Shown here piece by piece: positions 18,502 to 34,264 of a stretch of 64,000 nucleotides of DNA (position 1 is the stretch's first letter; each line of letters starts with the position of its first letter). Under the pieces are notes generated by a model, which made no database searches, was not told where the DNA came from, and saw only the letters and a list, made by a program, of their open reading frames with translations. Position numbers and translations under genes: made by a program. Source of the DNA: a candidate division FCPU426 bacterium (GTDB taxonomy: Bacteria > Oederibacteriota > Muellerivitia > Muellerivitales > Muellerivitaceae); assembly GCA_963771075.1 (NCBI GenBank), contig CAVYSE010000018.1, positions 198,642-262,641 on the forward strand. The letters are read 5' to 3'.

Positions 18502-18576
18502 GGCCCCATCGTCTAACGGTTAGGACGGATGGTTCTCAGCCATTAAATCGGGGTTCGATTCCCCGTGGGGCTACCA
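18502..18576 (+). tRNA. tRNA-Glu (anticodon CTC)
   Basis: Hand-folded cloverleaf: acceptor GGCCCCA/TGGGGCT (G1·U72), D-stem GTCT/GGAC, anticodon stem GATGG/CCATT with loop TTCTCAG (CTC), T-arm CGGGG-TTCGATT-CCCCG, discriminator A, encoded CCA. Confidence 0.85.
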
Positions 18577-20121: not shown

Positions 20122-20448
20122 TTGGAAATGACACAAGATCAGCTATTACCTGAAATGGTAAAGCGCATTAGGCAAGAAGTGGAACCTTTGCGGGTTCTTC
20201 TTTTCGGAAGCCGCGCCCGTGGTGGAAATCGCCCGAACAGTGATTTTGACTTATTAGTTATCGCGCCCTCCAACCTGCCCAGGTGGAAAAGGACCGTGGG
20301 GCTTTACCAAAAGCTTTCCGGTTTGGGAGTCGCCAAAGACATTGTTTGGTGGACCCCGGAAGAAATCGAGGAATGGAAGGGCGTTAAAAGCCACTTCATC
20401 ACGACGGCCATGCGGGAGGGTCAGGTCCTTTATGAAAAACCCGCATGA
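20122..20448 (+). CDS. minimal nucleotidyltransferase (MNT) antitoxin-type protein
   Basis: …LLFGSRARGGNRPNSDFDLLV… (GS-x9-DxD NTase motif); overlaps HEPN partner. Confidence 0.75.
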   Translation: MEMTQDQLLPEMVKRIRQEVEPLRVLLFGSRARGGNRPNSDFDLLVIAPSNLPRWKRTVGLYQKLSGLGVAKDIVWWTPEEIEEWKGVKSHFITTAMREGQVLYEKPA

Positions 20449-20818
20449 TCATTCCCGGGGACTTCTGCTAAAGGCTTCAAACGATTTATATTCTGCGGAA
20501 GATATTCTTACCGGCGGTCGTGCCTTTGACATGGCCTGTTTTCATGCCCAACAAGCCGTTGAAAAATGCCTTAAAGCTTTATTGGCGTCCGCTGATGAGG
20601 AATATCCCCTGCGCCATGACCTAGGGGAATTATTGGAGCATGTTAAGACCCGGTTCCCTGATCTGGATTTACCCTTAGAGGAGATTATGAGACTTGCCCC
20701 CTATGCCGTTGAGGTCCGTTATGACGATGAGTTTTATCCGAACCGAGAAGATGCACAAAAGGCGATTGAAACGGCCCGGTTGATAAATGAAAAGGTAACA
20801 GCGCATTTGAAACAGTAA
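20432..20818 (+). CDS. HEPN domain protein (toxin partner of MNT)
   Basis: ATG at 20432 overlapping MNT stop; …CFHAQQAVEKCLKALL… and …YAVEVRYDD… (Rx4-6H-type HEPN region). Confidence 0.7.
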   Translation: MKNPHDHSRGLLLKASNDLYSAEDILTGGRAFDMACFHAQQAVEKCLKALLASADEEYPLRHDLGELLEHVKTRFPDLDLPLEEIMRLAPYAVEVRYDDEFYPNREDAQKAIETARLINEKVTAHLKQ

Positions 20819-20835: not shown

Positions 20836-21165
20836 ATGGCACTTATTCAATGCCCAGAATGTAAGACAGATATTTCAGATAAAGCCGCTAGTTGCCCTAA
20901 ATGTGGGAATCCCATGATAGTTTCAAAGGCATCGGAAAATTCCGATAAACCTGATGGGAATTTACCGAGAAAATATGCAAATGTGGGTTTTATTTTAGGA
21001 ATAATACTTTGGTGGGGTGGGTGTGCACAATTTCGAATCGATTTTGAATTTAATGATTTACCTACTTTAATATTTTATGCTCTTTTAAGTGGTGCTGCTT
21101 TTTCTGCCTTTGGGTATTTAATGGGAGTGGCCAGCTCAAAAAACGTTAAAAGCTTTAAAAAATGA
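20836..21165 (+). CDS. zinc-ribbon domain membrane protein
   Basis: CPECKT…CPKCGNPM zinc ribbon, then hydrophobic helix; AT-rich island DNA. Confidence 0.45.
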   Translation: MALIQCPECKTDISDKAASCPKCGNPMIVSKASENSDKPDGNLPRKYANVGFILGIILWWGGCAQFRIDFEFNDLPTLIFYALLSGAAFSAFGYLMGVASSKNVKSFKK

Positions 21166-21794
21166 ACAAATCACTATTTTTATTACTCGGTTTCCTTTTT
21201 CTTGTTCCGCTACTTGGGTTTACTCAAGACGTTTCCTCAGTTATGTCATCCTTAAAAATCAAAAACAATGATGATCTTAAGAATTCATTGGCAGACATGA
21301 ATGCTGGCTTGAACTTATATTTTCAAGAAGATTATAAAAATTCCGCGATTATTTTTAAAAGGGTTGAGGAACAAGGAGAAGGAAGATCCCCTAAATGGTC
21401 GATTGAAAATGGAGTTGTAGGAACTTTTGCGGGTTATGTATGGATCAGCTGTATTAATAAAATTTTAGATAAAGAGAGCGTTAATGAATTGGTTAGTGAT
21501 GGAGTAATGATTGATTTTATTAAAACCCAGTTGGACCTTTATGGTCAAAGCGGGACGGGTGCAAGGGCATGTTTAACATCATATCAATCAAGCGAAGCAA
21601 ATGAAGGACTCAATCAGACTTCTTTGGGTAACATACACGATGGTGATTTTGCTGTATTTGAAGAAGTAACAAATAACAGTAATAAGTATATGTGCGAACT
21701 TGAGTATGGTTCTGATGGTTCGATCCATGTAAAAGCTTGGAAACGTCCAGGGTTGTTGCAAAAGCTTTGGCAGAAAATATCTGGTGGGAATTAA
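21162..21794 (+). CDS. secreted hypothetical protein
   Basis: ATGA overlap with upstream gene; signal peptide MNKSLFLLLGFLFLVPLLGFTQ. Confidence 0.5.
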   Translation: MNKSLFLLLGFLFLVPLLGFTQDVSSVMSSLKIKNNDDLKNSLADMNAGLNLYFQEDYKNSAIIFKRVEEQGEGRSPKWSIENGVVGTFAGYVWISCINKILDKESVNELVSDGVMIDFIKTQLDLYGQSGTGARACLTSYQSSEANEGLNQTSLGNIHDGDFAVFEEVTNNSNKYMCELEYGSDGSIHVKAWKRPGLLQKLWQKISGGN

Positions 21795-21800
21795 CATTTT

Positions 21801-22406
21801 TTGACTGGGGTTGAATTGAAAAAACCTATCTTGTTGGAAAACAGCCGTCTCCGAAAATCGATTAAAACGGCTCGGAAAAACTGGAAAAATTGGAAAGATG
21901 TGTATGAACACCATGGCCCAAGATATAAAAATCCTCTACTTATTTGTCCAAATAGGTTTAGAGAATTTTGCAAAGAATATTCTGTTATTCGGACAATACA
22001 AAAAGGAAATGTTGAGGGATTACGAAAACGGCTGGCCAAAATAAACTCATTTGAGTTGGCCATTAAGGACAACACGGGCAAAACATTTGATAGATTCGAA
22101 AAGCGGTTGAGGCCGAAATTTGGAATTCATCACAAGAATAGGTTGACTTCGGTATTGTCGAAGGTTGCAGCTTTCTTAAAACCACAAGTATTTGTTGCCT
22201 GGGATCAGTACGCCAAGATAGGAGTAAAAAAGGTTCTTAGTCAAAAAAGCGCTATCCAAGTAGACACTTACGAGAATTACATTGGGGCTTTTGAAATGGC
22301 CTGGAAACAACATAAACCTGATGCGCCAACAGTAATAAAAGGGGTCAGTCATCAATTATTAATATTTACAAGTTGGAGGCAATCGGTTAGCTTGTCGGGG
22401 CTATGA
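21801..22406 (+). CDS. hypothetical protein
   Basis: 201-aa ORF, 4-bp overlap with downstream transposase gene. Confidence 0.4.
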   Translation: MTGVELKKPILLENSRLRKSIKTARKNWKNWKDVYEHHGPRYKNPLLICPNRFREFCKEYSVIRTIQKGNVEGLRKRLAKINSFELAIKDNTGKTFDRFEKRLRPKFGIHHKNRLTSVLSKVAAFLKPQVFVAWDQYAKIGVKKVLSQKSAIQVDTYENYIGAFEMAWKQHKPDAPTVIKGVSHQLLIFTSWRQSVSLSGL

Positions 22407-23344
22407 GAAAACCTAGACTTCTTTATCTCGGCGGCTTGTACCACGTGATTGCCAGGGGAAATCAAAGGCAAAAAACATTTTTGGCCAAGGTTGATTTTCT
22501 TAAATATCTGGAACTATTAGGCGAGCATTTGGAAACGCGTGAAATAAGGCTTTATGCCTATTGCCTGATGCCCAACCATGTTCATCTGTTGGTAGAACAA
22601 GCCGGTGATTATCCCTTGTCCCGGTATATGCATCGGCTCCAAACGGCTTATACCCAATTCTTCAACCGGACCCATAAGAAAGTAGGCCATCTTTTTCAGG
22701 GTCGGTATAAGGCCATATTGGTGGACAAGGATTCATATCTGTTGGAATTGGTTCGATACATTGGGTTGAATCCGTTCAGGGCGAAATTGGAGGAAAAGCC
22801 GGGAATATATCCCTGGACCAGCCACCAACAATATTTGGGCCGAGAGAATAAGCCATTGGCGAAAGTGGAAGTTGAACCAGTTTTGGCTCTTTTCAGCAAA
22901 ATGAAGAAAGAAGCCCAAAAGGCCTATTTGAGGTTCGTCAAGGAAGGCATGGGGGAAGGCCATCGGGAGGATTTGTATGATGTCCGGCAGGGACATATTT
23001 TGGGGGACCAGGAATTCGAACAAAAAGCGCATCAAAAGGCCCAACGTCCGCTGTCAGGTGCGAGTTTGAAGGTGAAGAAAACATTACCTGAAATATGGAA
23101 AGTACTTTTGAAACGGGAAGGGCATAGTGAAGATCCGACAGGCCATCGCCGAAGCCGTTTAATGGAAGAAGCGGCCTATCTAGCGTTTGAGGGTTGTGGG
23201 ATAAGCCAAAGAGAGATAGGGGTATATTTTGGGAAAAATCAAAGCGCAGTCAGCCAGGCCATTAGGCGTTTGGAGATGAAGTGGAAAGAACAGCCCGGGG
23301 AAAAGGAGAAGTGGTTTCGATGGGCGCGACATTTAGAATATTAA
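22403..23344 (+). CDS. HUH-Y1 transposase (IS200-like / REP-associated tyrosine transposase family) fused to DnaA-C-like HTH domain
   Basis: …YHVIARGNQRQKTF…YAYCLMPNHVHLLVEQ (HuH) …QGRYKAILVDKDSYLLELVRYIGLNPF (catalytic Tyr region); C-terminal …AAYLAFEGCGISQREIGVYFGKNQSAVSQAIRRLE resembles DnaA C-terminal HTH; hairpins downstream (23480-23545). Confidence 0.65.
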   Translation: MRKPRLLYLGGLYHVIARGNQRQKTFLAKVDFLKYLELLGEHLETREIRLYAYCLMPNHVHLLVEQAGDYPLSRYMHRLQTAYTQFFNRTHKKVGHLFQGRYKAILVDKDSYLLELVRYIGLNPFRAKLEEKPGIYPWTSHQQYLGRENKPLAKVEVEPVLALFSKMKKEAQKAYLRFVKEGMGEGHREDLYDVRQGHILGDQEFEQKAHQKAQRPLSGASLKVKKTLPEIWKVLLKREGHSEDPTGHRRSRLMEEAAYLAFEGCGISQREIGVYFGKNQSAVSQAIRRLEMKWKEQPGEKEKWFRWARHLEY

Positions 23345-23629
23345 TATATGATGACTGACCCCGTTCACCCGTTCATGTGGAGATCATTTCGGATAAATCT
23401 CAAATACGGGTGGCTTCTTGTGAGCCGTCCGATGGTTACTTGAAGTTTTATCCACCGATTGAATATTTCGACATTAAGGCAAGGGTAACCAAGAAGAATA
23501 AGAAGTCTTAATTCTTCTTTTGGGGGGAAGGTCTTCCCCCTGGCCTCCGCTACCTTCGGTGATCCTCGGCACACCCCTTTCGCCTGGGGCTTTGCCCCAA
23601 ACCCCTAAATTAAGTTAGGAATAATTAAC

Positions 23630-24178
23630 ATGAACGCATTTGAACAGATCGTATCCGACATCATGCAAAGAAAGGGTTACTGGACTCGAATCGGGTACAA
23701 GATTGAACTCAAGAAAGAAGAAAAGGTGGCAATAGGAACCCCGTCTATGCCCGACCTTGAAATAGATGTGTTGGCCTATAAGGCCAAGACAAATGAACTA
23801 ATATGGATTGAGTGCAAATCTTATCTAGATTCAACGGGGGTTCGTTTCGAGGACTTGCTACCAGATGGCAAAAACGCATCGAGGTATAAAATATTCACGG
23901 ATAAAAACCGTAGAGAAATTGCCTCGGATGCTCTTAAAACGCAGTTGGTGAATGAAGGATTCGCGAATCCAAATCTTACGGTGAAACACTGGCTTGTAGC
24001 TGGAAAAGTGGTTTCCAAAGACCAAGAAAAACTAGAAAAGCATTTTGTTGATCAAGGTTGGGAGTTGAAAAATCATGAATGGCTATTAACGGAATTAAAG
24101 GAAATATCGAAGGGCAGTTGGGACGACAATGTTGCTTCAACCGTGGCAAAGCTTTTTTATCGAAATCAGAAAGAATGA
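23630..24178 (+). CDS. PD-(D/E)xK nuclease-fold protein (hypothetical)
   Basis: …PSMPDLEIDVLAY…LIWIECKSY… fits D-x(n)-(D/E)-x-K restriction-endonuclease-like core. Confidence 0.45.
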   Translation: MNAFEQIVSDIMQRKGYWTRIGYKIELKKEEKVAIGTPSMPDLEIDVLAYKAKTNELIWIECKSYLDSTGVRFEDLLPDGKNASRYKIFTDKNRREIASDALKTQLVNEGFANPNLTVKHWLVAGKVVSKDQEKLEKHFVDQGWELKNHEWLLTELKEISKGSWDDNVASTVAKLFYRNQKE

Positions 24179-24218
24179 AAACAGGAAACCTTTGAAACTG
24201 AAAATTAGGAAAAAATAA

Positions 24219-25268
24219 ATGGAAAAATGTTTATTTTGCGATTCGGACTGCACAGTGAAGATGGAGGTGGCAAACACTGGCTCTGCACCACGACCTTATT
24301 TGTGGGTCGGGTGTTCCTTTTGTGGGGATTACTTTTTTTCGGAGACCTTGATGGGGGAAATTTCTGCCCGTCGTCAATCAATGTCGCCGCAAAGTAAGGT
24401 GAATTGCTCCTTTCGTTGTTTGAATATCAAGGGGGAACATATTGGAACGGGAGGGTTAAAACCTTATCCCTTTTGGACAACGAGGGCAGAATATGACGCT
24501 CTTATGGCGACGAAATCTTCTAATGACGTTGTGCTGATAATAGAAGATGTTGAATTTGAATTCGTCGATCATGCGGAAAAACCATTCGTTTTTTTGGAAA
24601 TGATTGCTAGAAATTTGGAGCACAAAGGGGCTTTTGAATATTTTAATTTTAATAAAAAGCACTTAACGTTGGCAAAAATTGGAACAGAAAATGAGCTTCA
24701 GAAAATTATTCATTTTCTTTTGGAAAAGAATTATGTAAGTTCTGGAAAACTTGGCCACGCTTTACTAGAACAGCTCAACGAAATTATGCATAGCAAAGGG
24801 TTGAATCTAACTGTGGGTGGGTGGGCGGCAGTAAAAGAGAGAAATTCTGGAATTAATTCCAAAAAGGTATTTATTGCCATTAAGTTTGAGTGGCCAACGG
24901 CTGAGGAACCTTTGCGTCTGGAAGTGTTACGGGCTATTCAGGAAGCTTGCGATGCAAACGGATTTGTTGCCCAAATTGTAAACCAAAATACAACCGGGTA
25001 CATTACAGACCAAATTATTGCTGATATTAAAAATTCTCGGTTTTTAATCGCGGAATATACACATCATAATCATGGGGTTTATTACGAGGCTGGTTTTGCA
25101 AAAGGCCTTGGAAAATCTGTTTTTAACTTGGTAAGAGAAGATCATGAAAAAGATTTCCATTTTGATGTACGTCAAGTTAACCGGCGCACCTGGACTACGG
25201 CCACTGATTTAAAGGACAAGCTTCGATCCTGGATTGCAGCTTCTGCCGCAGAAAACAGTTTGAGGTAA
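24219..25268 (+). CDS. zinc-ribbon + nucleoside 2-deoxyribosyltransferase-like (NDT/SLOG-TIR-like fold) domain protein
   Basis: N-terminal CLFCDSDC…CSFCGDY Cys cluster; C-terminal …VFIAIKFEW…RFLIAEYTHHNHGVYYEAGFAKGLGKSVFNL… matches NDT-family E-x-G-[YF]-A…GK-x-V motif by eye. Confidence 0.45.
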   Translation: MEKCLFCDSDCTVKMEVANTGSAPRPYLWVGCSFCGDYFFSETLMGEISARRQSMSPQSKVNCSFRCLNIKGEHIGTGGLKPYPFWTTRAEYDALMATKSSNDVVLIIEDVEFEFVDHAEKPFVFLEMIARNLEHKGAFEYFNFNKKHLTLAKIGTENELQKIIHFLLEKNYVSSGKLGHALLEQLNEIMHSKGLNLTVGGWAAVKERNSGINSKKVFIAIKFEWPTAEEPLRLEVLRAIQEACDANGFVAQIVNQNTTGYITDQIIADIKNSRFLIAEYTHHNHGVYYEAGFAKGLGKSVFNLVREDHEKDFHFDVRQVNRRTWTTATDLKDKLRSWIAASAAENSLR

Positions 25269-25314
25269 AACATGTGTATCTGTTACCAACTAAAACTGCT
25301 TAAGGAACGATGAT

Positions 25315-25992
25315 ATGAACATTGATTTAAAAATGAATGAAACAAACCAAGCCTCAGTCCCGAATTCGGTTTACAGGTTTATTCCCATTCATCGGCTTTG
25401 GGAAATAATTGCCTCCAAAAAACTATATTTTTTAAGAAACACTAAATGGGAAGACCCGTTCGATGGTTATATAGCCGAACAGTGGTGTGAAAAGAATGGA
25501 AGATCCTATGAAAATTTTAGGAACAAGATTTATTTTTTATGCTGTACAACCGATAAACACATTGAGTTCTTTTGGAGGGCATATACACCAAATAAAGACG
25601 GAGTAAGGATTGAGATTTCTGTTTCTGAATTGTTAAGTTGTGCGCCAGGAATGAAGGCTCGCTTAATCCATTATGATAAAAGAGATAATCTTCAAGAAAT
25701 CATTTCGAAAGTAAAAAATGAAGCGTCATTGCTTACTGAATATTTTTTTTATAAAAGAGAAACATTTCAATATGAAAAGGAGCTTCGATTTTATTTTCGA
25801 AAAAAAGATCATTCTTCGGATGTTTTGGAGGTTCCGTTTGATCCGGCTAAAGTGCTTAAGAGTATTGTTTTTGATCCAAGAATGTCTAAACCTGTTTTCA
25901 AACTTCATGAAAAATTTATTGAACCTCATTTACCAAATGTCACCATATACCGCTCTAATATTTTTGATCCAAGGGGAACTTTCAGGTCATGA
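25315..25992 (+). CDS. DUF2971-like protein (hypothetical)
   Basis: …VYRFIPIHRLWEIIASKKLYFLRNTKWEDPFDG… resembles the DUF2971 N-terminal signature (recalled from memory, unverified). Confidence 0.4.
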   Translation: MNIDLKMNETNQASVPNSVYRFIPIHRLWEIIASKKLYFLRNTKWEDPFDGYIAEQWCEKNGRSYENFRNKIYFLCCTTDKHIEFFWRAYTPNKDGVRIEISVSELLSCAPGMKARLIHYDKRDNLQEIISKVKNEASLLTEYFFYKRETFQYEKELRFYFRKKDHSSDVLEVPFDPAKVLKSIVFDPRMSKPVFKLHEKFIEPHLPNVTIYRSNIFDPRGTFRS

Positions 25993-26195
25993 AAGACTTT
26001 CCCTTTTGGCGCGGTGCCATTTACAACGCTAAAACCCAGATTACACTTAAAGCTGTTGGGGAAGACCTCTCCAAATTCCAAAAACAATCCGGACTTTTCG
26101 TTGACGAGGAAGCCAAACTAACCGGCGACCAGCTGACCACCCTACGAAAACAGTATTCTGAAAAGATGAAAAAACTCGTTGTCGAAAGGATTTGA
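25989..26195 (+). CDS. small hypothetical protein (68 aa)
   Basis: ATGA overlap with upstream gene. Confidence 0.3.
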   Translation: MKDFPFWRGAIYNAKTQITLKAVGEDLSKFQKQSGLFVDEEAKLTGDQLTTLRKQYSEKMKKLVVERI

Positions 26196-26346
26196 AATGA
26201 ATGAACCAAGTTCTTTACCAACACAACAAATAGGGAAGCTTGGGGAATTACTTGTTCAATTGTAAACGCCGGTCCAAAAGTGTGACGGTCTGAGGGGCCA
26301 AAAAGGCGGTCGAAAAGTGTGACACTCCCCGAATATCCGGGAAGAT

Positions 26347-27904
26347 GTGGGGTTTTCAACGATGAAAACCACGCCACCGGAAGGAAAAGGAGTGTACAAA
26401 GACATGGACCAATGGACGGAAATCCGCAAGAAAATCCTGGTGGAAGGGGTCTCCAAGCGCCAGGTGATGGAAGAAGAAGGCATCCACTGGGAAACCCTCA
26501 AGAAAATACTCGCCCATAGCCAGCCGCCCGGCTACCAGATGAACCAGGAGAGGCCCCAGCCCAAGATTGGGCCCTTCCTGGGCCGAATCAAGCAAATCCT
26601 CCAGGACGATAAGCACATCCACAAAAAACAGCGCCATACCGCCAAGCGCATTTTCGAGCGCCTACGCAAGGAGGATGGCTACACCGGCGGCTATAGCCAG
26701 GTCAAAAAGGCCGTCCGGGGGATCAAACGAAGGAATAGCGAGGTGTTCGTGCCGTTGACGCACCGGCCCGGCGAGGCCCAGGTGGACTTTGGGCACGCCC
26801 TGGTCAAGCTCAACGGCGTGTTGGTGAAACGCCCCTACTTTGTGATGGCCTTGCCCTATTCGGACGCTTTCTTCGTGCAGATATTCGAGCGGGAAAGCAC
26901 GGAGTTCGTCTGGGAAGGCCACATCCGGGCCTTCAAGTATTTCGGTGGCGTACCCTGGCGGATCAGCTACGACAACGCCAAGACCCTCGTGAAGAAGTTG
27001 ATCGGGGTACACGAACGGGAATTGACGCGGGGTTTCCAGCAGTTGGTGAGCCACTATCTCTTCGACCACCACTTCTGCACCATACGCCGGGGCAACGAAA
27101 AGGGTGTGGTGGAAGGCGGGGTGAAATATGTGCGACTGAATTTCATGGTGCCGGTTCCGCAAGTGGGAAACTTGGAGGAACTAAACGAAAAATTGGTGGT
27201 GAACTGCCGTGAGGACTTGGAACGCAAATTGCGGGGTAAAGGACTTCCCAAGGGGCAACTTCTAGACGAGGATAAGGCCCATTTCAGGCCCTTGCCGGCC
27301 GCTGTTTTTGACGCCTGCATCAAGCAGTCCACCACGGCCACTTCCTTGTCCCTGGTGCGCTTCGACACCAACGACTATTCCGTGCCGACGGAATGGGCAC
27401 ACCATCCGGTAGTGGTGAAGGGATACATCGACCGGGTGGATGTCTATTACAGGGAAAAGCGGATTGCGACCCATGATCGTCTGTGGTGCAAGGAAGGCGT
27501 GGTCTTCAATCCGGTGCATTATTTGGCGATTTTGGAAGGGAAAACCGGGAGCCTTCGATCATGCCAGGCCCCTGGAAGACTGGAATCTGCCAGAGAATTT
27601 CGCCCTCCTGCGCCGCCGCATGAAAGCCAAGGAAAAGAGCCACGGTGAGGGAACACGGGAATTCATCAAGACGATGCGGCTTTTGGAAAAACATTCCATG
27701 GGCAGGCTCCACCGGGCGGTGAAGAAGGCCGTGGGGATGGAAATCTATACCCGCGACGCTGTCGCCCAATTGCTCTACTCCAGGGAAGATTTCAGGCTGA
27801 CCACCTTCAGCTTGGCCGGTCGTGAACACTTGCGACGAGTGCAGGTGGCTCGAACGGATCTCTCGGCCTACCGCGAACTGATGGCAGTGGGGGGTGAAGC
27901 GTGA
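26347..27904 (+). pseudogene. istA: IS21 transposase IstA, +1 frameshift in A4 run (27541-27544)
   Basis: N-terminal HTH + DDE region (…GEAQVDFGH…YSDAFFV…); frame 1 ends …HYLAILEGKTGSLRSC…*, frame 2 (27440..27904) continues …KGKPGAFDHARPLEDWNLPENFALLRR… typical IstA C-terminus; removing one A restores …LEGKPGAFD…. Confidence 0.75.
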
Positions 27905-28692: not shown

Positions 28693-28972
28693 AAGCTAAC
28701 CAACGACCATACACCCTAAAGGCGTATGGAAGGCGGGGGGTGTCACACTTTTGGATCGCCCACCGTCACACTTTTCGACCGGCGGGGACAGACTACGAAG
28801 GATAAAAACACAACAGAACCTAAGCCCTGTCCACAGGGCCTTTTTGCGTCCGGCAGGGAAGGGTGATCCCTCCCCTGCACCCCACCCCTCCTAAAGAAAA
28901 ACCAAAATTCTTATTACTCACTTTTGGTATAGTATTTATTGTGGATTAATCTTTAGGAGTAAGGGGATTGAA

Positions 28973-30175
28973 ATGGAAGATATTGCCAGTCCAAAAGACT
29001 TTTCAGAATACGAAAAAGAAGTCTCGGATAAGTTGGATGAATTTGGAAAAGGCCTTTCCGAAGAATTCTTTCAAGTTCTGAATAACTTGCTATTACATAG
29101 CTATCCCAAAAATCAAGAAAATGGGCTAAAAGCTTTCATGAGTATGTTGGGATTTGGCGCTTCCTTTGTTTTCGATTCCAATGCGATCCAGAGGGTTATT
29201 CGATATGAGTTGAAGGGTGGGAAATCTGCCGCCTTGTCCGCTATGCGGACAGGTTATGTAACCGCACTATCGCCGCCGAATATAGATTATGAAATCGCAA
29301 ATCACGCCGCAGAGATTGCCAAATATTGCGGTGTGGAACCAATAGATGTCCTTAATTTTTACCATGGCAAAATTAGACCATTTATCCAATTGATGGAAGT
29401 TTCGGACCAAGTTTTATACGAAAAAATTAAGTCTGGCATCAAGGACAAGGATGACGCTCCGTTTGTTGCCTTGGGTCTGGAAACCGAATCGATAGGCATT
29501 GTTACCGAGGATGGAGTTGTTAAAGATCAAGAAGGGGTAAAGACTTACCTCTTAGAGGACATCGCCAGGGTCCATGTACATTGTCGAAAAAGAGGAATGG
29601 TTATATTCCTAAGTATCTTAAATGTTATTGCGTTTGTTCTTTTTGTGAAAACAATCATGAGCTTTTTTGGGATGATTTTTCGTTTTGTAAGAAACAACCC
29701 TGGACTGATATTAGGAATTCTGGCGGGCGCAGGGTTAATTTATTTGTTGTTTAGAGAAGAAATTAATCAAAAAATAAAAGAGAATTTTGGCGAGAATTGG
29801 GAAAAAATAAAAGACCAAATGGGTCTTATTTGGAAAGATCTAAGCCCTTACTTGGGAGCGATACTTTTGCAAATTTGCCAAAGGATGCAGGAGACCAAGA
29901 AAGAGTTGGGGCAAATAACTGACGGAAAAACAGAACGGCTTGAATCCTTTCGAAACAGGCAATCTAACACTCTCGTTTCTCTGGACAAGTTGATTGAGCA
30001 AGTTTTATTGGCTCTAAAAAAGCCTTTGAGTTTACGAGAAATCCGAGAGGCGTTGAAATCGGTCGGCTTTAAACCGAGAGGCAAAAACACGATTTATTAC
30101 GAAGTCAAAAAGGCCTTGGTAATGAACCCAAGATTCATTCAGGATACAAATGGATGTTACCTAGTAAATACCTAA
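28973..30175 (+). CDS. hypothetical membrane protein (two central TM helices; possible C-terminal wHTH)
   Basis: 400-aa ORF in AT-rich DNA; stop 22 bp upstream of RM gene, co-oriented. Confidence 0.5.
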   Translation: MEDIASPKDFSEYEKEVSDKLDEFGKGLSEEFFQVLNNLLLHSYPKNQENGLKAFMSMLGFGASFVFDSNAIQRVIRYELKGGKSAALSAMRTGYVTALSPPNIDYEIANHAAEIAKYCGVEPIDVLNFYHGKIRPFIQLMEVSDQVLYEKIKSGIKDKDDAPFVALGLETESIGIVTEDGVVKDQEGVKTYLLEDIARVHVHCRKRGMVIFLSILNVIAFVLFVKTIMSFFGMIFRFVRNNPGLILGILAGAGLIYLLFREEINQKIKENFGENWEKIKDQMGLIWKDLSPYLGAILLQICQRMQETKKELGQITDGKTERLESFRNRQSNTLVSLDKLIEQVLLALKKPLSLREIREALKSVGFKPRGKNTIYYEVKKALVMNPRFIQDTNGCYLVNT

Positions 30176-30196: not shown

Positions 30197-33100
30197 ATGA
30201 TACGTGGAGACCTTTTTTCTAAAGAGTTTTTGGTTGATGGAATTCGTGAGTTTCCGGAGTGGAATCAACTCAAAGCCGAAACTATTGCCGAGTTTAAAAC
30301 GGCTTTAATTGCCATCTTTTCTAAATTTCCAATTTCCAAAAGCCCAAATGAAGCCACCACTGAACGTGACCTAATTGAACCGATTCTAAAACAACTATCT
30401 TGGGTTGATTACCTTCCCCAACAAACCGCCGCTAAAAAAGGCCGTTCTGATGTTCCGGATTTTTTGTTATTTGCAAATAATGAGGATAAGGATAAAGCGA
30501 ACAAAGAAAATGAAGAATCTAGTCGTTATCGGCATGGTTTATCAATTTTAGAAGCAAAAGCTTGGGACATTTCCTTAGACAGAGGGATAGGCAAAGGAAA
30601 ATCCCAAGGTTCTGTCCCTTCCCATCAAATCCTCCGTTATATGAGTCGTGTGGAGATCCTATCTGAAAAGAAAATTAAATGGGGATTTTTAACAAACGGA
30701 AGGTTTTGGCGAATCTATTATCAAGATGCCAAGTCTCGGTCGGAAGAATTCCTTGAAATGGATTTGAAAGTAATTTTAGGCTTGGAAGGCGCAGGGCCTG
30801 AGTTATTTAATCAGGAGGACTTGTATAACCAAGATTGGCTTAAAGTTTTTTATATTCTTTTTGGGAAAGAATACTTTTTAAAACGGGATGTTGATAGAAA
30901 GTCATTCCATGATCGTGTTGTTGAGACTGCAAAGTATTGGGAAGAACAAGTATCCAAAGGTTTGAGCGATGTTGTTTTTAATATAGTTTTTCCTCTTTTG
31001 GCAGAAGGATTCTATTTGGGTTCAAAAAAAAGAAATTCTTCACCAAAACCAAATCTACAAGAAGTTCGTGATGGAACCCTAACAATTCTTTATCGCCTAT
31101 TATTCGTTTTTTATGCGGAAGATAGATCGTTATTACCTGTAAATGATACGCGTTATGTAAATTATGGGTTGAGGCAAAATATTCGCCAAGACATAGCGGA
31201 TAGAAAAGATAGGCAAGATACTTTCAGCGAAACCCAAACAAATTATTACCAAAGACTTAAAAATCTTTTTAGGGCTATAGATAAAGGGGACGCTTCAATT
31301 GGTCTTCCGCCTTATAACGGGGGCTTGTTTGATAATCTTCAAAATTCACTTATCGAAGAGGTTGAACTCTCGGATCATTTAATGGCTGATGTTATTGATA
31401 ATTTATCCAGGCATGAAGAAAACGGACAAAAGAAATGGATTAATTATCGGGACCTATCTGTGCAACATTTGGGGTCAATTTACGAACGGCTTCTCGCTTT
31501 TGAGTTAGTTCTTAACAAAGGAAAAGTTGAGGTGCGGCCTAGTATCTTTTCTAGAAAAACAAGCGGCGGTTACTATACTCCGGAGGTGTTGGTTCGATTA
31601 ATTTTGAGTAAGACGATAGGGCCAATTCTCGAAGAGAAAAAACAAAAATTCTTATTAAAGGCACAAGAGCTAGGAAAAATTAAATCCAACAAACAGAATA
31701 ATATAAAGGAACTTGAAGAACTTGATCCTGCTGAAAATATCTTAAAATTAAGATTTTGTGACCCTGCAATGGGAAGTGGGCATTTCCTAGTTTCTTTAGT
31801 GGACTTCCTTGCAGATTGCATTTTGGAAGCCACTGTTGAAGCTCAAAATGTTGTTGAGGAAGAATTGGAAGGCTTGAATTATGTTTCGCCCCTTCTCAAG
31901 GAAATTTCTGACATTCAAATCAAAATATCTGAAAAAGGGAAACGACAACACTGGACCATTTTTACAAGCCAATTAGATGACCGGCATATTATTCGGCGTA
32001 TGATCCTTAAACGTTGTGTTTATGGTATTGACAAAAACCCCATGGCCGTTGAACTGGCCAAAGTTTCTTTATGGTTACATACCTTTACAGTTGGTGCCCC
32101 ATTATCTTTCTTAGATCACCATTTGAAATGTGGGGATTCCTTGTTTGGAGAGTTTACTTTTGAATTAGAAGATTATTTAAGGTCGCGGGGTAGTTTAGTA
32201 ATTGATGAAGCGGTGAAAATTGCAAAAGAAGCTGCCCAAGAAATAAAGAACATCGAAGAAATATCAGATATTGACTTGATTGAGATTAAAAACTCCGAAG
32301 AGAAATTTAATGCGATTCGAAAAAGAGTTGATCCGATAAATAAATTTTATAGTTTTGTACATGCTGGACGTTGGATGGTTCGAGAAAACAGTGAAAACAA
32401 AATCCATTTTAACTCGATTTTGGACGGCCAATATGGTGATCCCATTGATGTGGCTATTTCAAAGGATTTGCCTAAAACTATAAAAGAACCCGAAGCTATT
32501 CAATTTTGGAATTCGGCTAGAAAATTAGCTAATGAAGAAAGATTTTTTAATTGGGAAATAGCTTATCCGAGGGTTTGGGATAAATGGGAAGATAAATTAC
32601 CAGTTGGTGGGTTTGATGCCGTAATTGGAAATCCCCCTTGGGATAGGATGAAATTTCAGCAAGTTGAGTGGTTTGAAACTCGAAATCTGGAAATTGCAAA
32701 GGCTACAAGAGCCTCGGAACGGGAAAAGTTGATTGAAAAACTTAAGAAGAACAAAGATCCACTTTGGAATGATTTTGTTCTTGCTGATACCCGAACAAAG
32801 GTTGCGGTAGATGTCGCTCGAAATGAAGGTCAGTATCCCCTTCTCTCGGGAGGTGATGTAAACATTTACAGTCTTTTTGTTGAGCGTTCCCATAGGCTGG
32901 TTAAGAATGATGGGATTGTCGGTTTGGTAATCCCATCGGGGATTGCTGGTGATAAAGGCTCATCCGAATTTTTTAAAAGTTTATCAACCTCAGGAAGACT
33001 GTCGGCATTATTTGATTTCGAAAATAAAAAAGTATTTTTTCCTGATATTCATGCTTCTTTTAAATTTCTTTGTTATGTGGCTGGTGGAAAAGATAGAAAA

Positions 33101-34264
33101 TTCGAAAATACATCGTGCGCTTATTTTCTTCATGATATTGACGAAATCAATGACCCTGAAAGATGTTTCAATTTAACTGCTGAAGACTTTTCCAGAGTCA
33201 ATCCCAATACTGGAACTGCGCCGATATTTAAATCAAAACGAGCAGCGATGTTAACCAAAGATATTTATAAGCGGAATGGCATCTTAAACGACCATAAAAC
33301 TGGAAGCGCATGGCCAATAAAATATTTCAACATGTTCCATATGACGAACGATTCAAACCTTTTTAAAACCCGAGAAGAACTCGAAAAAGATAATTTTTAC
33401 CTCGTGGACGAAGGGAAAATGAAAAAAGGGAAATCGGAATATTTGCCGCTTTACGAAGGCAAAATGGTTCAAGCTTATGATCACAGAGCAGCGGGAATTA
33501 AAGTTAACTCGGAAAATGTAAATCGACCAGCACAACCAGTTTCCACCTCTTTTGCAAATCATTCTGACCCTGAGTATTTCCCAACTCCACAATTTTGGGT
33601 TGAAGATAAAGAAGTTGATTCGAGATTAGCTGTTAATGAAAAAGATAAGCCTGGTTGGTATCTTTCTTTTAAAGACGTAACAGCTTCAACGAATATTAGG
33701 TCAATGATTTCTTCTTTTATACCGCGAAGGGCCGTGGGAAACACTTTACCCTTAATTTTATTTTCCGAAAATCGAAACGAATTGGGGCCTTTGCTTTTGG
33801 CGAATTTTAATTCTCTCCCGTTCGATTTTTTGTGTCGTCAAAAAATCCAGGGACAACATCTAAATTGGTACATAGTAGAACAAGTTCCGGTTATTTCTCC
33901 AACAAGGTTCGATGAGGTCATTGGAAAAAATAAAATCGGGGATCTAATTAGAAAATGCGTTTTAGAGTTAACTTACACTTCAAATGATATGAAAAAATTT
34001 GCTGAAGATATGGGTTTGATGCAGGGTCCATTTTCCTGGGATGAAGAAAAAAGGCGGCATTTGAAAGCAAGGATTGATGCGTTATTCTTTATGCTGTATG
34101 GCTTAGAAGATGATGACGTTAAATTTGTAATGGAAGACTTTTCAATAATTAAAAAAGAAGATACTGAACAGTTTAGCGGTAAATTCGTTACTAGAGATTT
34201 GGTTTTAGGATATATGAGAGCTTATAAGGCCGGTGACGTTGATACGAAGTTGAGTCTTAAGTAA
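30197..34264 (+). CDS. Type IIG/IIL restriction-modification fusion enzyme (MmeI/Eco57I-like): N-terminal PD-(D/E)xK endonuclease + gamma-class N6-adenine methyltransferase + TRD
   Basis: …SDVPDFLLFANN…LSILEAKAWD… (D…EAK nuclease core); MTase motif I …RFCDPAMGSGHFLVSL…; motif IV …DAVIGNPPWDRMKF… (NPPW); 1355 aa. Confidence 0.75.
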   Translation: MIRGDLFSKEFLVDGIREFPEWNQLKAETIAEFKTALIAIFSKFPISKSPNEATTERDLIEPILKQLSWVDYLPQQTAAKKGRSDVPDFLLFANNEDKDKANKENEESSRYRHGLSILEAKAWDISLDRGIGKGKSQGSVPSHQILRYMSRVEILSEKKIKWGFLTNGRFWRIYYQDAKSRSEEFLEMDLKVILGLEGAGPELFNQEDLYNQDWLKVFYILFGKEYFLKRDVDRKSFHDRVVETAKYWEEQVSKGLSDVVFNIVFPLLAEGFYLGSKKRNSSPKPNLQEVRDGTLTILYRLLFVFYAEDRSLLPVNDTRYVNYGLRQNIRQDIADRKDRQDTFSETQTNYYQRLKNLFRAIDKGDASIGLPPYNGGLFDNLQNSLIEEVELSDHLMADVIDNLSRHEENGQKKWINYRDLSVQHLGSIYERLLAFELVLNKGKVEVRPSIFSRKTSGGYYTPEVLVRLILSKTIGPILEEKKQKFLLKAQELGKIKSNKQNNIKELEELDPAENILKLRFCDPAMGSGHFLVSLVDFLADCILEATVEAQNVVEEELEGLNYVSPLLKEISDIQIKISEKGKRQHWTIFTSQLDDRHIIRRMILKRCVYGIDKNPMAVELAKVSLWLHTFTVGAPLSFLDHHLKCGDSLFGEFTFELEDYLRSRGSLVIDEAVKIAKEAAQEIKNIEEISDIDLIEIKNSEEKFNAIRKRVDPINKFYSFVHAGRWMVRENSENKIHFNSILDGQYGDPIDVAISKDLPKTIKEPEAIQFWNSARKLANEERFFNWEIAYPRVWDKWEDKLPVGGFDAVIGNPPWDRMKFQQVEWFETRNLEIAKATRASEREKLIEKLKKNKDPLWNDFVLADTRTKVAVDVARNEGQYPLLSGGDVNIYSLFVERSHRLVKNDGIVGLVIPSGIAGDKGSSEFFKSLSTSGRLSALFDFENKKVFFPDIHASFKFLCYVAGGKDRKFENTSCAYFLHDIDEINDPERCFNLTAEDFSRVNPNTGTAPIFKSKRAAMLTKDIYKRNGILNDHKTGSAWPIKYFNMFHMTNDSNLFKTREELEKDNFYLVDEGKMKKGKSEYLPLYEGKMVQAYDHRAAGIKVNSENVNRPAQPVSTSFANHSDPEYFPTPQFWVEDKEVDSRLAVNEKDKPGWYLSFKDVTASTNIRSMISSFIPRRAVGNTLPLILFSENRNELGPLLLANFNSLPFDFLCRQKIQGQHLNWYIVEQVPVISPTRFDEVIGKNKIGDLIRKCVLELTYTSNDMKKFAEDMGLMQGPFSWDEEKRRHLKARIDALFFMLYGLEDDDVKFVMEDFSIIKKEDTEQFSGKFVTRDLVLGYMRAYKAGDVDTKLSLK

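Follow-up and report, generated by a model that had tools for sequence, protein, structure and literature searches.

This analysis concerns a block of four small genes, here called P1 to P4, on a 64,000-nucleotide stretch of DNA from a candidate division FCPU426 bacterium (assembly GCA_963771075.1, contig CAVYSE010000018.1, positions 198,642 to 262,641). The whole stretch, at its full length, is referred to as the window, and all coordinates are window positions unless a locus identifier (L followed by a number) is given. The original prediction, made from the sequence of the window, had described three tightly packed genes on the same strand followed by a small open reading frame (ORF) overlapping the last of them by 4 bp, and the ORF list places all of these exactly so (lengths in amino acids, aa):

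P1, 23630-24178, + strand, 182 aa: solitary PD-(D/E)xK nuclease-fold protein (ORF list, motif and model)
P2, 24219-25268, + strand, 349 aa: zinc ribbon, a helical, winged-helix middle part and a C-terminal N-glycosidase-fold domain resembling nucleoside 2-deoxyribosyltransferase (NDT) and TIR domains
P3, 25315-25992, + strand, 225 aa: DUF2971 protein of the PADLOC candidate type PDC-S31
P4, 25989-26195, + strand, 68 aa: conserved small protein

The gap between P1 and P2 is 40 bp and that between P2 and P3 is 46 bp, and a simple scan found no convincing terminator between any of the four genes, which may therefore be co-transcribed here, in an adjacency that is local and recent. The three larger genes had been read as one sensor-plus-effector abortive-infection system, which, if real, would have been a new defence architecture. 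We have compared the neighbourhoods of the P1, P2 and P4 families and of the relatives of P3, and in our view the block is quite likely a stretch of a horizontally acquired mosaic island, scrambled by insertion sequences (IS), in which each gene stands on its own and the four do not make up a single system. Two of the three, P2 and P3, are probably phage-defence genes that each act singly, and what remains is typical of a mosaic island.

The evidence that carries this reading is the company kept by relatives of each gene elsewhere. The P1 family was scanned for in one genome per species (185,579 species genomes), giving 101 loci spread over many phyla; 80 of these were retrieved, and exclusion of the contig carrying the same element as the window left 79 independent loci. 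Neither P3 nor any of 52 P2-family proteins had a tblastn match in these 79 loci, and clustering identified no recurrent neighbour family. Indeed, the 148 genes flanking P1-family members represented 91 Pfam families, none of which occurred more than three times, and the Pfam survey showed a mixture of integrases, methylases, SIR2, BrxA and plain housekeeping genes. The converse search, of 59 P2-family loci by tblastn with P1, 120 P1-family proteins, P3 and P4, likewise found none of these partners. In the seven metagenome loci whose P2 homologues are closest, the genes alongside encode a prophage terminase, UvrD, an AlbA_2 protein, a TacA/acetyltransferase pair accompanied by DUF4238, and unknowns, and none of them resembles P1, P3 or P4. 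P4 occurs without P2 and P3 in 13 other loci, one of which (L076) has a P1 homologue. Adjacency of the three genes across unrelated genomes, the check set beforehand, was thus seen in 0 of the 79 P1 loci and 0 of the 59 P2 loci, the one further occurrence being a 99 %-identical copy of the same element. The three-gene system is unsupported because the neighbourhood is not conserved, and the absence of linkage in the P1 and P2 loci led us to reject it. What survives of the original prediction on this point is the assignment of the domains and the defence-island setting, and what falls is the claim that the genes make up a single system.

The block has just one other copy, a 2.9-kb segment with 99 % nucleotide identity over window positions 23375-26253, found in L010/L011 (CAWKIF010000020.1, from a candidate division FCPU426 metagenome-assembled genome, MAG). 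At this level of identity it is the same element, and it is therefore not independent evidence for linkage. The flanks of the L010 copy differ from those of the window on both sides. On the left, the breakpoint lies inside a 178-aa gene of which the last 44 codons survive in the window (the blastn match starts at 23375); on the right, homology to L010 stops at 26253, the end of an IS21 element, and the DNA past this element does not continue the MAG sequence. We considered whether the 2.9-kb block might be a mobile cassette, given that both flanks differ in the MAG. This candidate was rejected on the same breakpoints, one cutting a gene and the other coinciding with the IS21 end without resumption of the MAG sequence beyond it, which point to IS-mediated rearrangement as the better explanation of the differing flanks. 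The L010/L011 copy also contains 13 gap openings, with P1 and P2 fragmented and the end of P3 altered, and these gaps most likely stem from long-read assembly errors.

P2 is the useful lead of the block and the only part of it worth experiment. Its cysteines C4, C7, C32 and C35 (numbered in the translation) lie on predicted beta-strands, as in a zinc ribbon, and its C-terminal domain, at about residues 216-348, contains an invariant E290 and an invariant H314-F315-D316. The top structural matches of the P2 model (predicted local distance difference test score, pLDDT, 88.6) are NDT, BcmB, DNPH1 and MilB, with TIR domains next. Against PF05014, P2 reaches 22.7 bits (E 1.2e-4) where the gathering cut-off is 28.8, and this model matches 28 of 30 members of the P2 family at E<=0.01, while the PADLOC ‘TIR effector’ model matches 23 of the 30. 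In the family profile the segment GVYYEAGFA is aligned with GVGYELGRA of DNPH1, placing E290 on the glutamate of the GVGYELG motif, a residue that we take to be catalytic in DNPH1. Measured against the NDT superfamily (PF05014), P2 thus misses the gathering score and has both the predicted NDT-type fold and the glutamate of the G-x-x-x-E-x-G motif, and the C-terminal domain sits between the NDT and TIR families, nearer to NDT. The zinc ribbon and NDT-like domain originally proposed for this protein are upheld by the four cysteines, the sub-threshold PF05014 match and the match of the predicted structure to NDT.

The P2 family is large. A word-indexed search had returned 52 matches, so that the family looked rare, and this was corrected by an exhaustive profile search of 1.84 billion representatives, which gave 25,886 matches at E<=1e-3 and 4,919 at E<=1e-30. 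Among the best 150 matches nearly all span almost the whole profile, in proteins of approximately 290-350 aa. The family therefore has one shared architecture and comprises at least 4,919 clusters at 50 % identity. Relatives of P2 are present on 50 viral contigs (IMG/VR), with no match by tblastn in a phage genome collection, and on plasmids of Bacillus mycoides and Leptospira, where RefSeq labels them ‘nucleoside 2-deoxyribosyltransferase’; the Leptospira relative has a SEFIR protein and a large methyltransferase as neighbours. When two genes on each side were surveyed in 35 non-redundant loci (collapsed at 85 % identity), the neighbours included type I restriction–modification (RM) M/S subunits (5), integrases (5), Eco57I-type enzymes (2), UvrD (2), DUF4238 (1) and ThsB_TIR (1), counts that are only partly independent and somewhat inflated, the viral-contig loci sharing phage ancestry. 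This is the usual signature of a defence-island gene. As a family, P2 is absent from PADLOC v2, and no paper that treats it as a defence system came up in a limited literature search.

Two arrangements of P2 homologues were seen repeatedly on viral contigs. In L091, L093, L136 and related contigs, P2-family genes lie directly after the type I RM genes hsdM/hsdS. PrrC is an RM-embedded anticodon nuclease that fires when the RM enzyme is disabled, and the RM-embedded arrangement of P2 relatives recalls it. In the related viral contigs L101-L116, a 168-aa ORF lies some 700-1200 bp downstream of the P2 homologue; it is probably the source of the single ThsB_TIR Pfam match, and the prophage regions concerned stack several nucleotide-enzyme genes.

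Our current working hypothesis for P2, held tentatively and at rather less than even odds, is that it represents a large, unrecognised single-gene defence family in which a zinc-ribbon/winged-helix sensor would control an NDT/TIR-like N-glycosidase that, once the cell is infected, destroys NAD+ or a nucleotide pool; copies lying within type I RM operons would form a second line, firing, as PrrC does, when the RM enzyme is disabled. We infer that P2 most likely combines sensor and effector in one protein: the N-terminal zinc-ribbon/winged-helix part would recognise a phage cue, and the C-terminal domain would cut the N-glycosidic bond of NAD+ or of a nucleotide, starving the infected cell. Should P2 turn out to be an immune protein that depletes nucleotides or NAD, the TIR/NDT/SLOG immune enzymes would gain a further branch and a widespread mis-annotation would be corrected.

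P3 was originally called DUF2971-like, and it scores above the Pfam gathering threshold for this family (PF11185, 33.3 bits against a cut-off of 22, E 1.3e-7). It also matches the PADLOC model PDLC04993 (PDC-S31) at E 6.3e-37, residues 7-221 aligning with profile positions 5-238 of 245, so that by sequence P3 qualifies both as a DUF2971 protein and as a PDC-S31 candidate. The accompanying statement that the domain combination matches no named system is consequently only partly right. Only five close relatives were present in the protein collection, and E154 and E156 of an ExE motif are invariant in all five; a first metagenome scan with P3 alone gave no match, sequence searches of the PDB with P3 returned nothing relevant, and a literature search for ‘PDC-S31’ found no paper. 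DUF2971 proteins are predicted to have an ADP-ribosyltransferase fold with an ExE motif, related to DarT and AbiGi (PMC12522546), and in Lactococcus the DUF2971 protein Aristaios has been validated as an abortive-infection system of one gene (PMC11381338). By analogy with Aristaios and from its family, P3 alone is most likely an abortive-infection toxin with an ADP-ribosyltransferase fold, whose ExE motif would, in the infected cell, modify a target that is either nucleic acid or protein.

P1 poses a second, smaller puzzle, that of a nuclease travelling alone with no visible specificity or control module. Its motif, D46-x14-E61-C62-K63, is invariant in 23 aligned family members, and its AlphaFold2 model (pLDDT 92) gave Foldseek matches to Upx, AF1548, MunI, MspJI and FokI. 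The match to Mrr_cat reaches 19.8 bits against a gathering cut-off of 21, and the P1 family profile also matches the nuclease domain of Card1 (E 0.005). The nuclease fold assigned to P1 from the outset thus agrees with the invariant D46, E61 and K63 and with the restriction-endonuclease-like model, and motif and predicted fold together place P1 in the PD-(D/E)xK superfamily. The family occurs in only about 100 of the 185,579 species genomes, across unrelated phyla and with no fixed context, a distribution that would fit a solitary PD-(D/E)xK nuclease moving between genomes on its own.

P4 had no match in Pfam, PADLOC or PHROGs and a single chance-level match in NCBIfam, which gave nothing useful for any of P1 to P4. 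It is better conserved than the genes around it, with homologues 60-72 % identical in L141 and L076. In L141 a SRAP gene is followed by a DUF2971 gene (54 % identical to P3) and then by P4 (72 % identical); in L144 a P3 relative of 38 % identity has no P4 beside it; and in L076 P4 occurs without DUF2971, 1.3 kb downstream of the P1 homologue and with a SRAP gene nearby. On none of 12 metagenome contigs is P4 next to DUF2971, whereas SRAP lies directly downstream in 4 of the 12; other upstream neighbours of P4 are a Sel1-repeat protein and a sigma-54 activator. We considered P3 and P4 as an obligate pair, given the 4-bp overlap and the pair in L141, and discarded this, P4 being found mostly elsewhere and the P3 relative of L144 lacking it. 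P4 behaves as a small conserved gene of this lineage, often beside SRAP, with different accessory genes landing nearby, and not as a dedicated partner of P3. P4 and SRAP (YedK-like) recur together in L141 (3576-5235), L076 (2996-5755), L148, L151, L152 and L153, either adjacent or with accessory genes between them (DUF2971 in L141, the P1 homologue and membrane proteins in L076), and the P4-SRAP region looks like a variable insertion hotspot.

The block itself lies within a low-GC island (GC 32-48 % across approximately 19-34.5 kb, against 55-63 % in the flanks), whose other features are as follows:

18502-18576, + strand: tRNA-Glu (CTC) gene (ARAGORN, Rfam), directly upstream of the low-GC island and likely its boundary
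20122-20448 and 20342-20818 (the latter as listed for the HEPN ORF), + strand: MNT/HEPN pair, nucleotidyltransferase (Pfam NTP_transf_2, E 1.3e-11) and HEPN protein (E 4.4e-27)
20836-22406: three co-directional ORFs upstream of P1 in the AT-rich island, junctions overlapping by 4 bp or 6 bp apart
22403-23344, + strand: IS200-like Y1 transposase gene, 313 aa (Pfam Y1_Tnp, E 6.3e-16)
23377-23511, + strand: C-terminal remnant, 44 codons, of the 178-aa gene present in full on the related MAG contig (L010 2229-2765)
26254-28790 (approximate ends), + strand: IS21-family element with IstA-like ORF, IstB and terminal inverted repeats
26347-27648, + strand: IstA-like ORF, 433 aa, with an apparent continuation at 27440-27904 in another frame, 154 aa
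27901-28692, + strand: IstB (IstB_IS21, E 1.1e-68)
28973-30175, + strand: PIN-like protein, 400 aa (Pfam PIN_2, E 1.8e-4, 22.2 bits against a cut-off of 22.4)
30197-34264, + strand: Eco57I/MmeI-type fused RM enzyme, 1355 aa (Pfam Eco57I, E 1.5e-24; MmeI_Mtase, E 1.2e-5)

The drop in GC begins at about 19 kb, just past the tRNA-Glu gene, and a tRNA-Glu gene directly before an island of about 15 kb and low GC is the pattern expected of a tRNA-associated genomic island. Neither a second copy of the tRNA-Glu 3' end, such as would delimit the island on its far side, nor an integrase ORF was found in the window. The low GC relative to the flanks, the adjoining tRNA-Glu and the IS elements bear out the description of the DNA as AT-rich and foreign-looking, and the location of the block between an IS200-like and an IS21 element is likewise correct, given the Y1_Tnp match on one side and, on the other, IstB, the IstA-like ORF, a Mu-transpos_C_2 match (E 1.9e-19) and terminal inverted repeats at 26267-26331 and 28734-28784. 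The 154-aa continuation of IstA ends where IstB begins, and the split frame points either to a frameshift, which may have left the transposase inactive, or to a sequencing error. The Y1 transposase, at 313 aa, is long and unlike the short classical IS200 TnpA, and its C-terminal part gave only weak matches of helix-turn-helix type (MarR_2, Bac_DnaA_C, Sigma70_r4). Of the three ORFs at 20836-22406, one encodes a zinc-ribbon protein whose tail is hydrophobic, another a protein of 210 aa that is hydrophobic at its N-terminus, and the third a protein of 201 aa; the zinc ribbon is the only family match among them. The defence-island setting is real: the MNT/HEPN pair, the Eco57I-type RM enzyme and a Fic protein, the last just past the low-GC island, are recognised by Pfam, and the PIN-like protein falls just under the Pfam cut-off.

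It is against this background that the alternatives to a mosaic of independent genes were weighed. A single cooperative abortive-infection system made up of P1, P2, P3 and P4, with the roles of sensor and effectors shared among the nuclease, the nucleotide-processing enzyme and the DUF2971 protein, would agree with the tight packing on one strand with no clear terminator, with the retention of the whole block as a unit in one related MAG, and with the defence-island setting. However, the families are never together in the 79 P1 or 59 P2 loci, the nearest relatives of P3 are flanked by other genes, the sole other copy is the same element, and PDC-S31 is catalogued as a candidate on its own, just as Aristaios consists of one gene (PMC11381338), so that we regard this explanation as very improbable. 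A division into two-gene modules, with P4 neutralising an ADP-ribosyltransferase-fold P3 in the manner of a toxin–antitoxin pair and P1 and P2 perhaps forming a nuclease and N-glycosidase pair, is also unlikely, if less so. The overlap of the P4 start with the P3 stop, the same DUF2971-P4 order in L141 and the closely spaced upstream nucleic-acid gene (UvrD, AlbA_2) often found with close P2 homologues speak for it; yet P4 occurs without DUF2971 in L076 and on the 12 metagenome contigs, after unrelated upstream genes and often followed by SRAP, the L144 relative of P3 lacks P4, P4 contains no macrodomain or other recognisable family, and the P1 and P2 families never co-occur. We would give a similarly small chance to roles outside defence. 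P2 would then be an enzyme of nucleotide salvage or nucleoside modification that carries a regulatory domain, P1 a nuclease belonging to DNA repair or to a mobile element, and P3 an ADP-ribosyltransferase that is either secreted or regulatory. The RefSeq annotation of P2 relatives, the housekeeping genes beside some P1 homologues and the minority of DUF2971 proteins predicted to be secreted effectors (PMC12522546) are consistent with such roles. Against them stand the zinc ribbon and winged-helix-like region of P2, for which the solved NDT, DNPH1 and MilB matches (113-166 residues) have no room, the presence of P2-family genes on plasmids, within prophages and next to genes of RM and TIR type, the sparse, context-free distribution of P1 among unrelated phyla, and the match of P3 over its full length to a defence-candidate model.

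When the block is read as a set of independent genes, several observations must be entered on the other side. The absence of partners was judged by BLAST-level similarity within 3-6 kb, so that a very divergent or distant partner would escape; the short gaps, the 4-bp overlap and the lack of a convincing terminator leave room for co-transcription and some local cooperation; and the DUF2971-P4 pair does recur once, in L141. As regards single-gene defence, the ADP-ribosyltransferase fold ascribed to P3 is taken from the DUF2971 literature (PMC12522546), the defence role suggested for P2 derives from its context and predicted fold, and the shared ancestry of the viral contigs lessens the weight of the P2 neighbour counts. 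We nevertheless favour independent genes in a mosaic island, with P2 and P3 as the probable single-gene defence components.

Comparison with known systems brings out what is familiar and what is not in each of these proteins. P4 differs from the antitoxin of DarTG in being a 68-aa protein with no Pfam match, and no macrodomain (DarG) match was found in the neighbouring ORFs. P3 shares its Pfam domain with Aristaios and has retained the family's ExE motif; it is shorter, at 225 aa against 316 aa. P1 shares the D...ExK motif and the predicted fold with the Mrr catalytic domain, AF1548 and the nuclease domains of Upx and Card1; Upx is a defence protein with two PD-(D/E)xK nuclease domains (PMC13099982), one of which P1 resembles. 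Unlike these nucleases, P1 consists of just 182 aa in which no module for DNA binding, sensing or NTPase activity was recognised, and it has no partner gene. From an Mrr-type (type IV) enzyme it is further set apart by its score below the Mrr_cat cut-off and by having no room for an N-terminal DNA-recognition domain, because the nuclease motif starts within the first 46 of its 182 residues.

The mechanism proposed for P2 has parallels among known defence proteins. The NDT-like effector of retron Ec86 (Retron-Eco1) is reported to deplete adenine and its derivatives (bioRxiv 10.1101/2023.08.16.553469). That retron needs a reverse transcriptase and a non-coding RNA, neither of which was found near P2: the ORFs scanned at 20-44 kb contain no reverse-transcriptase domain, Rfam recognises nothing in the window but the tRNA, and no retron effector was among the PDB sequence matches or the 50-60 structural matches listed for P2. 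Similarly, in contrast to CBASS and Pycsar, no cyclase or other signal-generating partner was recognised beside P2, and no nucleotide cyclase family was present among the ORFs scanned at 20.1-30.2 kb. Swarozyc, a TIR-like NADase, offers a parallel for P2 (bioRxiv 10.64898/2026.05.01.722283), but, relative to the TIR-like NADase defence proteins (Swarozyc/DUF4062 and the TIR effectors of CBASS and Pycsar), the sequence profiles favour NDT over TIR for P2, which differs also in domain order and auxiliary domains. With respect to NDT, DNPH1/Rcl, MilB and BcmB, the invariant HFD motif of P2 could not be mapped to these enzymes, and P2 has an extra N-terminal region of 215 residues containing the zinc ribbon and the winged-helix-like part. 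Finally, the genomic context of P2 is not a metabolic one but mobile and defence-related.

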